Position numbers and translations under genes: made by a program
Assembly: GCF_013122565.1 (NCBI RefSeq)
Contig: NZ_CP053258.1
Direction: 5' to 3' (one strand)
From: Escherichia coli
GTDB taxonomy: Bacteria > Pseudomonadota > Gammaproteobacteria > Enterobacterales > Enterobacteriaceae
DNA length: 64,000 nucleotides
Shown: positions 41,729-45,403 of the stretch, piece after piece
How positions within the stretch are numbered: position 1 is the first letter of the stretch
Layout of the letters: each line of letters begins with the position of its first letter
Notes under the pieces: generated by a model
What the model was told of the DNA's origin: nothing
What the model saw: only the letters and a program-made list of their open reading frames with translations
Database searches by the model: none

Positions 41729-44404
41729 TTACTTCAACATATTACGAATGACATAATGCAAAATGCCGTCGTTCTGGTAGTAGGTCAACTCCGTCGCGGT
41801 GTCGATACGACAACGGCAGAGTACGACTTCCTGGCTACCATCCGCGCGCGTAAGCGTCACCGGAACCGTCGCGCCGGGTTGTAGATTTTGCAGATCGCCA
41901 ATATCAATCTTCTCTTCCCCGGTTAGCCCTAACGTTTTACGCGTTACGCCTTGCGGAAATTCCAGCGGCAGGATGCCCATGCCAATTAAATTCGAACGGT
42001 GAATTCGTTCAAACGACTCGGCAATCACCACACGAATTCCAAGCAGACGAGGACCTTTTGCCGCCCAGTCACGGCTGGAGCCTGATCCATACTCTTTCCC
42101 GGCAATCACCGCCAGCGGCGTTTGCTCCTGCTTATAGCGCATCGCAGCATCATAAATAGAGACTACGTCGCTGTCAGGTAAATGCCGCGTCATCCCCCCT
42201 TCAACGCCAGGCACCATTTCATTACGGATGCGAATATTGGCGAAGGTGCCGCGCATCATCACTTCATGGTTACCACGCCGCGAACCGTAGGAGTTAAAGT
42301 CTTTTCGCTCAACACCCCGACCTTGTAGATATCGACCCGCTGGGCTGTCGGGCTTAATACTGCCCGCCGGAGAGATATGGTCAGTGGTGACTGAATCCCC
42401 CAGCATTGCGAGGATCCGCGCACCGTGAATATCTTCCACAGGTGCTGGTGTTGCCTGCATTTCATCAAAGAAAGGCGATAAGCGAATATAGGTTGAATCC
42501 TCCTGCCAACCGTAGGTATCGGATCGTGTGACGTTAATTTCCTTCCACTCTGCTGTGCCTTCAAAAACTTCTGCGTACTCTTTACGGAACATTTCTGTGG
42601 AGACTTGTTCTACCGCACGGGCAATTTCTTGTGCCGATGGCCAGATATCTTTCAGATAAACCGGGTCGCCTTTACGATCATGACCAATAGGCTCAGCAGC
42701 CAGGTTGATATTCATATTTCCCGCCAGCGCATAGGCAACCACCAGCGGCGGCGAGGCCAGCCAGTTGGTTTTAACCAGCGGATGGATACGGCCTTCAAAG
42801 TTACGGTTGCCGGACAGCACTGCACCGACGGTTAAATCGCCTTTTTTGATTGCCGTTTCGATAGGATCGGGCAGCGGCCCAGAGTTACCAATACAGGTGG
42901 TACAACCGTATCCCACAAGGTTAAACCCCAGTTCGTCGAGATACGGTGTCAATTTCGCTTTTGCCAGATAGTCAGAAACAACTTTCGAGCCTGGTGCCAG
43001 CGACGCTTTGACCCACGGTTGCCGCTTGAGGCCAAGAGTTACGGCTTTTTTCGCCAGCAAGCCTGCAGCCATCAGCACACTTGGGTTAGAGGTGTTGGTG
43101 CACGAGGTTATCGCAGCAATGACCACAGCGCCATCCGGTAACTGATACTGATGTCCGTTCATAACATAATCGACCGGCTGGCGATCTTTATGCGTGGCAT
43201 TCACTTCCAGTTCGTTACTGGCGGCAAATGCTTTTGGTACATCGGGCAGTGCAACGCGATCCTGTGGGCGTTTTGGCCCTGCCAGGCTCGCTTCAACGTC
43301 ATTCATATCCAGTTCTAACGTACTGGTAAAAATCGGTTCATCGCCCGGGTTACGCCACATGCCCTGCGCTTTGGCATATTTTTCGACCAACTCGACCTGA
43401 TCTTCGCTGCGCCCGCTTAAACGCATGTAATCGAGGGTTACAGCATCGATTGGGAAGAAGCCACAGGTGGCACCATATTCTGGCGACATATTGGCAATGG
43501 TGGCGCGATCCGCCAACGGTAGTGAATCCAGCCCATCACCATAAAATTCGACGAATTTCCCCACCACGCCATGTTTGCGCAGCATTTGGGTAACGGTGAG
43601 AACCAGGTCTGTGGCGGTAATACCTTCACGTAATTTTCCGGTAAGTTTAAAGCCCACTACGTCCGGGATAAGCATGGAAACCGGCTGGCCTAACATTGCG
43701 GCTTCTGCTTCGATCCCCCCCACGCCCCACCCCAGCACGCCAAGGCCGTTGATCATGGTGGTGTGCGAGTCAGTACCAACGAGTGTATCCGGATAAGCAA
43801 TCCATTCACCGTCCTGCAATTCGCTCCACACTGCTTTGCCGAGATATTCGAGGTTAACCTGATGGCAAATGCCTGTGCCTGGCGGCACGACGCTAAACCG
43901 ACTGAACGCCTGCTTTCCCCATTTCAGGAACACATAACGTTCGTGGTTGCGCTCCATTTCCAGGCGTACGTTTTCTTCAAATGCCTCATCATCACCAAAA
44001 CGATCGACGGTCACCGAGTGGTCAATGACCAGGTCGACCGGTGAGAGCGGATTAACCTTTGCAGTATCGCCACCGAGGCGTTTAACCGCTTCGCGCATTG
44101 CCGCCAGATCAACAACGGCAGGTACGCCGGTAAAGTCCTGCATCAGCACCCTTGCCGGGCGGTAGGCAATTTCACGGTCAGCATGGGCATTTTTCAGCCA
44201 TCCCGCCAGCGCGTGGATATCCTCTTCGGTAACCGAGTTACCATCCTGCCAGCGCAGCAGGTTTTCGAGCAAAACTTTGAGTGACTTGGGCAGACGGGTG
44301 ATATCGCCCAGTGATTTGGCAGCAAGCGGCAGGCTGTAGTAGTGGTAAGTTTTATCTTTGGCCTGCAACGTGTCCTTACTGGCTTCTCGTAGGGTTGACG
44401 ACAT
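41729..44404 (-). CDS. acnA: aconitate hydratase A
   Basis: 891-aa [28 protein letters not shown]. Confidence 0.97.
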
Positions 44405-44776
44405 AGCTCCTCCTTAATGACAGGGTTGCGAAGCCCTGATTCTCTTCAGGGTGAGTATTAAAGATAACACAAACATCGCGTAACGATTTGATAACAACCC
44501 AAATTGATAAAAGAGGAGAAACCTTGTGGCAAAGCAAATGAAAACCCCGCCGCAGCGGGGTCAAGGATCAGTGAGTAATGATCCAGAGGAGTTCGGCCCA
44601 GAAGAGCATCGACAGAGAAAATGCACCCATCCAGGACCAATATTTCATATTTGTGTTGATCATAGGCTACACCTTTAACGGTTATTACTTTGTGTTGAGA
44701 TAACTCAACCTGTTATTGCTGTGGTGTATTAAAAGCCCTTTAATTCATTAAAAATGGGTAATAAGAATGATGATAA

Positions 44777-44944
44777 TTATTGTTTCGGCTGTTCATCTTC
44801 AGCAAACAGTTCTATAAAGGCTTGCTGCTGCGATGTTAGTTGCCAGTCGTCTGGAATAATGACGGAACATTCCCGTTTCGTTTCTGGTTCATTATCACTA
44901 TGCTGACATAATGGTGACGACTCCAGTTGCTCCTGACCGACCAT
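44777..44944 (-). CDS. yciX: small protein
   Basis: 55-aa ORF MVGQEQLESSPLCQHSDNEPETKRE; start abuts ymiA stop. Confidence 0.7.
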   Translation of the reverse strand: MVGQEQLESSPLCQHSDNEPETKRECSVIIPDDWQLTSQQQAFIELFAEDEQPKQ

Positions 44945-44946
44945 AG

Positions 44947-45075
44947 TTATCCCCACACTTTCCAAATCAGCAGTGCGACAACCACCCAGAAAAGTGCAGA
45001 ACCAAGAAAAACCGCCAGCCAGGCTTTACGTTTTAATTCAGGATCGCGGCGGGGTTCCTGATTTCCAGAAGGCAT
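44947..45075 (-). CDS. ymiA: small single-TM membrane protein
   Basis: My translation: MPSGNQEPRRDPELKRKAWLAVFLGSALFWVVVALLIWKVWG (42 aa); below the track size cut-off; coordinates hand-counted. Confidence 0.6.
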   Translation of the reverse strand: MPSGNQEPRRDPELKRKAWLAVFLGSALFWVVVALLIWKVWG

Positions 45076-45403
45076 TGCTAACCTCATATAATCGCCATCA
45101 CTTATCAGCAAGACGTTGAACGATTGGTGTAATTAATCATACGATGAGACAAATCCTAAAGAAACTTTAGTCAAAAATCCAGCGAATTTACGAATCGTAT
45201 CCAGTGAATAATTCAATCTTTTGACCTGAAATAGATATTTGAAAACTGGAGTTTGCGAGGCGGGTAATTAGACACTACTTTACAGGTAATTTACCCTATA
45301 AATATGAGGGATAAAATATTGTGCACGATATACAAATAAGTAACAAAGAAAATATATTTCGGCACCTTCGCTACATAAAAGGTGCCGAAAATAACGCAAG
45401 AAA

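Follow-up and report, generated by a model that had tools for sequence, protein, structure and literature searches.

The Hairpin between ymiC and acnA in Escherichia coli Is Probably the Intrinsic Terminator of the ymiA-yciX-ymiC Operon

The hairpin located between ymiC and acnA, at positions 44562..44543 on the minus strand of the window (the entire 64,000-nucleotide stretch of Escherichia coli DNA that was analyzed), probably serves as the intrinsic terminator for ymiA-yciX-ymiC, an operon that is induced by PhoQP, and as such it would form the 3' end of the RNA family STnc180 and insulate acnA. RNA polymerase would arrive from upstream through ymiA, yciX, and ymiC, and a G+C-rich stem-loop would form in the nascent RNA 5 nt past the stop codon of ymiC. 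The U-tract would then release the transcript around positions 44541-44536, and the resulting 3' end would be that of the Rfam family STnc180, which is in reality the mRNA of ymiC. In doing so, the terminator would keep the small-protein transcription that is driven by low Mg2+ and PhoQP out of the independently regulated acnA. The sequence, fold, gene context, family membership, and conservation of the hairpin were all determined directly. The hairpin is already known as a sequence family (STnc180) and is ordinary as a mechanism.

The gene for aconitate hydratase A, acnA (41729..44404 on the minus strand; 891 aa from its coding sequence), is preceded on the same strand by ymiA (44947..45087), yciX (44777..44944), and ymiC (44568..44663). 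The first and third of these operon genes encode small membrane proteins, with ymiC consisting of 31 codons. The annotations of ymiA, yciX, and ymiC were transferred to the window from a 99.7% identical E. coli record; yciX was also located by tblastn synteny, and ymiC by its open reading frame and RefSeq annotation. A segment of 901 nt around the hairpin site was matched in 5,421 of 5,426 complete E. coli genomes, and the minus-strand gene order in the matching records is cysB, ymiA, yciX, ymiC, acnA. An identity to the window of 99% or more across this segment was reached by only 4 of the 5,421 genomes. The 370-nt region upstream of acnA (44405-44776) from which the preliminary description had started does exist, but it is not purely noncoding, as it holds the annotated ymiC.

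The product of ymiC in the window is a protein of 31 aa (MINTNMKYWSWMGAFSLSMLFWAELLWIITH) that is identical to YmiC of K-12. Chromosomal epitope tagging has shown that the K-12 protein is made (VanOrsdel et al. 2018, PMC6001520), and YmiC localizes to the membrane (PMC11429745). When upstream regions were fused to reporters in E. coli, that of ymiA gave PhoQP-dependent activity that was induced by low Mg2+, promoter activity directly upstream of ymiC was negligible, and it was concluded that ymiA, yciX, and ymiC form an operon (PMC11429745). A scan for PhoP boxes (KGTTTA-N5-KGTTTA, up to two mismatches) gave no match upstream of ymiA. After cysB, at 45357-45390 (minus strand), there is a strong terminator-like hairpin of 13 pairs (TTTCGGCACCTT...AAGGTGCCGAAA) followed by a T-rich tail, and it delimits the ymiA unit on the upstream side. 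In both the Rfam structure and the minimum free energy fold, UACACC (about 44728-44723, minus strand) pairs with GGUGUA just upstream of the AUG of ymiC; this predicted pairing would sequester the Shine-Dalgarno sequence of ymiC.

On the acnA strand the RNA from 44562 to 44543 reads GACCCCGC-UGCG-GCGGGGUU, followed by UUCAUUUGC. The same site as minus-strand DNA is GACCCCGC TGCG GCGGGGTT, then TTCATTTGCT, and the plus strand at 44545-44561 is CCCCGCCGCAGCGGGGT. The site was also returned by a consensus scan as a terminator-like element of eight pairs, six of them G-C, with a loop of 4 nt. The G-C core spans 44560..44545, and the two outer pairs (G-U and A-U) take the first two U residues of the U-tract. 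The U-tract on the 3' side of the core (UUUUCAUUUGC, 44534..44544, minus strand) opens with the run TTTT at 44544..44541 and is short, with four U residues and then CAUUU. The stop codon of ymiC (TGA) occupies 44570..44568, which places the start of the stem 5 nt and that of the G-C core 7 nt further on; the distance between the last position of the core (44545) and the ATG of acnA (44404) is 141 nt. These values agree with the preliminary description, which had placed a hairpin followed by TTTT on the acnA strand at about 44543-44560, some 140 nt before the start of acnA; its coordinates are accurate to within 1-2 nt.

The hairpin was calculated to fold with an energy of -16.4 kcal/mol, and only 1 of 200 shuffled sequences was found to be equally stable. 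The corresponding z values are -2.8 in a context of 56 nt and -3.4 in a context of 40 nt. A heuristic terminator score, obtained with the formula of d'Aubenton-Carafa and current energies, gave a T-tail score of 3.82 and a d-score of 30 for the intact U-tract of the window. A bidirectional terminator was considered and rejected, because there is no U-run on the plus-strand side of the hairpin. The intergenic DNA of E. coli often contains G+C-rich palindromes, and the structure might on that ground be a chance palindrome, or a copy of a REP-like dispersed repeat, that plays no part in transcription. We regard this as exceedingly improbable, given that few shuffled sequences fold as well and that the hairpin is present in a single copy. 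Its 18-mer occurs once in the 64-kb window, against an expectation of 0.03, and no further copies were found in the window with up to three mismatches allowed; the hairpin is therefore not a dispersed repeat. In addition, the position of the hairpin and U-tract is kept across six genera, and the structure is part of a curated covariance model. The copy number, the conservation across genera, and the pairing described below have effectively refuted an origin by chance or repetition.

Orthologous loci were identified with a degenerate DNA pattern derived from the coding region of ymiC, and the search was thus independent of the hairpin; the pattern was strict, and Salmonella and Klebsiella were missed by it. 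The 18 enterobacterial loci obtained in this way come from Escherichia, Citrobacter, Enterobacter, Lelliottia, Kosakonia, Pluralibacter, and other Enterobacteriaceae, and the order cysB-ymiA-yciX-ymiC(-acnA) was found in all 18. Across these loci yciX evolves much faster than the adjacent genes, with amino acid identities of 33-80%, compared with 51-98% for ymiA and 90-100% for CysB. A hairpin with a U-tract is positioned between ymiC and a conserved acnA promoter block in 16 of the 17 complete spacers, representing six genera. Most of the orthologous hairpins have CCTCGC/GCGAGG where the window has CCCCGC/GCGGGG, a change on both sides of the stem, and the hairpin of Enterobacter soli has the U-G intermediate between the U-A and C-G forms. 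When 15 homologous hairpins were aligned, 90.7% of the cells were able to pair, compared with 39-61% when the partner was slid. The compensatory column contains UA in 10 hairpins, CG in four, and UG in one, which suggests modest covariation.

More informative than this covariation are the different stems of Pluralibacter (CCCGAC/GTCGGG) and of one Citrobacter (CCCGGTG/CGCCGGG) and the unrelated hairpin of strain RIT693; the loci at which the hairpin sequence is unrelated are L006, L019, and L018. At L018, from strain RIT693, unrelated sequence extends over about 115 nt and the terminator is a different one. Two loci carry insertions after ymiC, and in both the terminator still adjoins the acnA promoter. 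The insertion in C. sedlakii (L014) is 50 nt long and has its own hairpin; that in a strain of C. amalonaticus (L016, region 1216-1302) adds about 130 nt, with a long hairpin (GCGTTGCTCA...TGAGCAACGC), after the stop codon of ymiC and before the terminator. The distance from the ymiC stop codon to the hairpin ranges across the genera from 7 to about 140 nt. Judged from these alignments, what is conserved is a terminator just before the acnA promoter, and not its spacing from the end of ymiC.

Two further loci were of note in their own right. A divergent metagenome-assembled Enterobacteriaceae genome, whose AcnA is 81% identical, is without a terminator at the corresponding position (L012, 8706-8792), and its yciX was not matched. 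In Escherichia sp. MOD1-EC7003 (L021, 13550-13641), the sequence diverges from that of all the other loci halfway through the hairpin (CCTCGCTGCGGCG|CTGAGGAATCCCC...), and the 80 nt that are left of the locus contain no acnA; there may have been an insertion or rearrangement at the terminator. The CCTCGC/GCGAGG form of the hairpin, as found in record L004, is absent from the set of complete E. coli genomes, and L004, labeled "E. coli" by GTDB, is therefore assigned to a different Escherichia lineage.

A search of the region against Rfam returned a single family, RF02079 (STnc180), at 44736..44534 on the minus strand with a score of 199.3 bits (gathering score 50) and E = 4e-43, and no riboswitch or leader family was matched. 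The match is full length (model positions 1-208 of 208, no truncation), and the hairpin with its U-tail corresponds to the last helix and tail of the model. The match at 44534..44736 is a segment of the ymiC mRNA that includes the terminator. Scores above the gathering value were obtained for all 15 of the other loci tested, at the same position between yciX and acnA. The hairpin with its U-tail and the position between yciX and acnA are shared with the "Enterobacterial sRNA STnc180" of RF02079, and we found no structural difference between the two.

The Rfam classification of RF02079 as "Gene; sRNA" raises the question of whether the hairpin is the Hfq-binding, stabilizing 3' module of an independent sRNA, with termination of the operon being incidental. 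STnc180 was first seen as cDNAs in a study of Hfq co-immunoprecipitation in Salmonella (Sittka et al. 2008, PMC2515195), a provenance that would fit such a role. The same study, however, detected only RNAs of 500-2000 nt with northern probes for STnc180 in Salmonella, and called them likely processed mRNA species (PMC2515195). The region also encodes YmiC, a validated and membrane-localized protein (PMC6001520, PMC11429745), and the negligible promoter activity just upstream of ymiC speaks against an independent transcript (PMC11429745). The part of the ymiC open reading frame that runs from the KYW motif to the stop codon is 25 codons long in every one of the 18 enterobacterial loci. Pairwise differences by codon position, outside the search pattern, are 0.43/0.17/0.57 over the 18 loci, which is a coding signature. 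STnc180 was not found to act as a noncoding regulatory sRNA, a result that bears on the family label and not on the membership of the sequence. An independent sRNA is consequently an improbable reading of the hairpin, and the label "sRNA" of RF02079 is misleading, in that the segment is the mRNA of YmiC at the 3' end of a three-gene operon.

The main promoter of acnA, P2, lies downstream of the hairpin. A start at -50 was published in 1997 and was found again in a later study by 5' RACE, the supplement of which gives -51 and ttgtGTTATCTTtaat as the -10 box (Mendoza-Vargas et al. 2009, PMC2760140). In the window, P2 (44454..44469, minus strand) has the extended -10 element TGt-TATCTT (44469..44461) and starts at 44455/44454 (-51/-50). 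The P2 block is conserved in all 17 loci. Transcription from P2 begins about 90 nt downstream of the hairpin, which is therefore not contained in P2 transcripts. Between the terminator and P2 there is a second block, TTATCAATTTGGGTTGTTATCAAATCGTTAC (44480..44510, minus strand), that is near-invariant across six genera and is presumed from its conservation to be the regulator-binding region of acnA. This block contains a repeated TTATCAA motif. Since both the P2 start, at a distance of about 90 nt, and the conserved block lie downstream of the terminator, its job would be to separate two units.

Several other features were noted around P2. A PhoP-box-like sequence, TGTTTGTGTTATCTTTA (two mismatches, 44459-44475, minus strand), overlaps the -10 region, but the scan gave 18 matches against 13.4 expected, so that this match is not above chance. 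The P2 transcript has a 5'-terminal hairpin, CCCUGA-agagaa-UCAGGG (44434..44451, minus strand), for which 94.4% of the cells are paired across genera with one compensatory column. The 3' arm of this hairpin has a second possible partner, CCCUG at 44425..44421, immediately ahead of the Shine-Dalgarno sequence, and 94.7% of the cells are paired in this alternative with no double changes. Binding of CsrA to the P2 leader of acnA has been published. In K-12, a Term-seq 3' end at acnA +4 (PMC7815308) and a 5' RACE end at -5 (PMC2760140) suggest processing at the start codon.

The preliminary description had offered two readings of the hairpin. The terminator of the yciX/ymiA transcript was right in substance and overlooked the third gene, ymiC, between yciX and the hairpin. 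The other, an attenuator in a long leader of acnA, is unsupported for the main promoter: the start of P2 is about 90 nt downstream, no antiterminator was predicted, and no leader family was matched. For transcripts from a distal start, an attenuator is an unlikely but conceivable possibility. A second, sigma-38-dependent start, P1acnA, was reportedly described by Cunningham, Gruer, and Guest in 1997 at 407 bp upstream of the coding region, which we take to be at about position 44811 of the window, inside yciX. No statement on the position of P1acnA was found in the literature searched. If this distal start is real, some transcripts must pass the hairpin, and read-through into acnA may be possible.

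The hairpin would then be a regulated, leaky terminator of long acnA transcripts that originate either at the ymiA promoter or at the distal promoter within yciX, and ymiC would serve as a uORF, so that a ribosome at its stop codon hinders the hairpin and read-through into acnA depends on translation of ymiC. The separation of the ymiC stop codon from the base of the stem (5 nt) and from the G-C core (7 nt) is favorable to this arrangement, as a gap of 5-7 nt is within reach of the footprint of a terminating ribosome. A ribosome that terminates at the end of ymiC would extend as far as the first bases of the stem, and translation may have an effect. The spacing is not conserved, however, ranging up to about 140 nt, which argues against an effect of the ribosome as a conserved mechanism. 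The independent weakening and deleting alleles in most E. coli, described below, would also be in keeping with read-through that is tolerated or favored. On the other side, the well-supported start of P2 is downstream of the hairpin, which thus does not lie between this promoter and the start codon of acnA, and no structure was found to compete with the terminator. The terminator was formed with a pair probability of 1.0 in RNAs that extend from 44811, 44736, or 44663 to 44534 (130-278 nt). With the 3' arm withheld, the CCCC core of the 5' arm was unpaired (P <= 0.21), so that folding revealed no competing antiterminator; no mutually exclusive antiterminator or aptamer was identified by folding or by Rfam, which matched no leader or riboswitch family. 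The pair ymiC-acnA is among the candidates for uORF-dependent regulation nominated by Adams et al. 2021 (PMC7815308), but the 3' end behind this nomination is K-12 position 1335835, at acnA +4, and not the hairpin.

The leader-peptide attenuators of pyrBI and trp also have a short translated open reading frame beside an intrinsic terminator and upstream of a metabolic gene, and in pyrBI the terminator is suppressed when a ribosome follows closely. The ymiC-acnA region is similar in that the ymiC reading frame ends right beside an intrinsic terminator upstream of acnA. It differs from both attenuators in that no antiterminator or anti-antiterminator was predicted, the main promoter of acnA is downstream of the terminator, ymiC encodes a conserved membrane protein and not a sensor of charged tRNA, and the spacing to the terminator is not conserved. 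A further comparison is with mdtU-mdtJI, for which ymiC-acnA was nominated as a possible additional example (Adams et al. 2021, PMC7815308). Termination at mdtU is Rho-dependent, whereas the element between ymiC and acnA is intrinsic and the nominating 3' end is at acnA +4 (PMC7815308).

An intrinsic terminator at the end of the operon accounts for these observations: there is a G+C-rich stem-loop with a U-tract directly on its 3' side, the structure is conserved in 16 of 17 loci, and it stands 5 nt past the ymiC stop codon, at the end of a co-oriented unit and upstream of P2. That termination does take place at the hairpin in this strain is an inference, and so is its efficiency. The G+C-rich stem, the tetraloop, the U-tract after a stop codon, and the single direction of action are shared with canonical operon-end terminators of E. 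coli, from which the hairpin differs in that its site is polymorphic within the species. The U-tract of the window is also shorter than those of the Enterobacter, Lelliottia, and Kosakonia orthologues (6-7 U).

The alleles of the terminator within E. coli were compared at loci L027 (K-12), L028, L030, L033, and L035, and were counted in the 5,426 genomes. The spacer between ymiC and acnA in K-12 differs from that of the window at two places, a T-to-G change in the U-tract (GGGGTTGTCATTT) and the P2 start position. The former converts the third U to G (UUGUCAUUU), and the heuristic score is 30 for the allele of the window and 9 for that of K-12. The K-12 type was found as an exact 68-mer in 3,100 genomes and was matched in 3,326 in all (about 3,300); its carriers include K-12, O157:H7, and BLR(DE3). 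The exact 68-mer of the window, with TTTT, was found in one genome. An intact TTTT, as in the window, was found as an exact 36-mer in 382 genomes and with one mismatch in 288 more, and the intact form is accordingly present in at most about 670. A deletion of 14 nt, CCCCGCTG[CGGCGGGGTTTTCA]TTTGC, removes the 3' arm of the hairpin and the U-tract. It was found as an exact 76-mer in 879 genomes, with a total that is estimated to be about 1,150-1,350, or roughly a fifth of the genomes, and its carriers include urinary and avian pathogenic isolates. The deletion allele has no terminator hairpin, and the region folds with only -4.7 kcal/mol (z about 0). A stem variant with a G-to-T change in the 5' arm and an extra G was seen in L030 and L035 (-11.9 kcal/mol, z -0.9).

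At the loci of other Escherichia lineages and of other genera, the stem is followed directly by 3-7 U without interruption, and for this reason the form in the window looks ancestral and the other E. coli alleles look derived. Since most E. coli carry weakened or deleted versions, tight termination at this site is evidently dispensable in the species. The portion of the K-12 Term-seq data consulted (Adams 2021, PMC7815308) contains no 3' end at the hairpin, about position 1335700, nor at 13354xx-13357xx; the only plus-strand 3' end between 1333823 and 1339157 in that portion is the one at 1335835 (acnA +4). This negative result concerns the weakened UUGU allele of an operon that is induced by low Mg2+. 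Because the K-12 allele is weakened, neither the absence of a Term-seq end in K-12 nor the reported read-through from P1 can simply be transferred to the strain of the window.

The assignment of the hairpin as the terminator of the ymiA-yciX-ymiC operon has consequences for the annotation of this region, which should be treated as the end of the small-protein unit and not as a leader of acnA. The STnc180 entry of Rfam is better understood as the mRNA of a small protein. K-12, the strain in which the acnA promoters and 3' ends were mapped, has a weakened terminator, and many pathogenic lineages have deleted it, so conclusions about read-through into acnA may not transfer between strains. That this terminator has decayed into other alleles in most E. 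coli is a minor point, but one that can be checked. We would also put forward, as a speculative proposal, that the terminator is a tunable valve and not a fixed stop, in which the natural allelic series sets how much upstream transcription reaches acnA. The input to such a valve might, as an equally tentative suggestion, be the PhoQP-driven (low Mg2+) and stationary-phase transcription from upstream, possibly modulated by translation of ymiC that ends 5 nt before the stem. If this proposal is true, lineages of E. coli would differ in the stress response of aconitase A.
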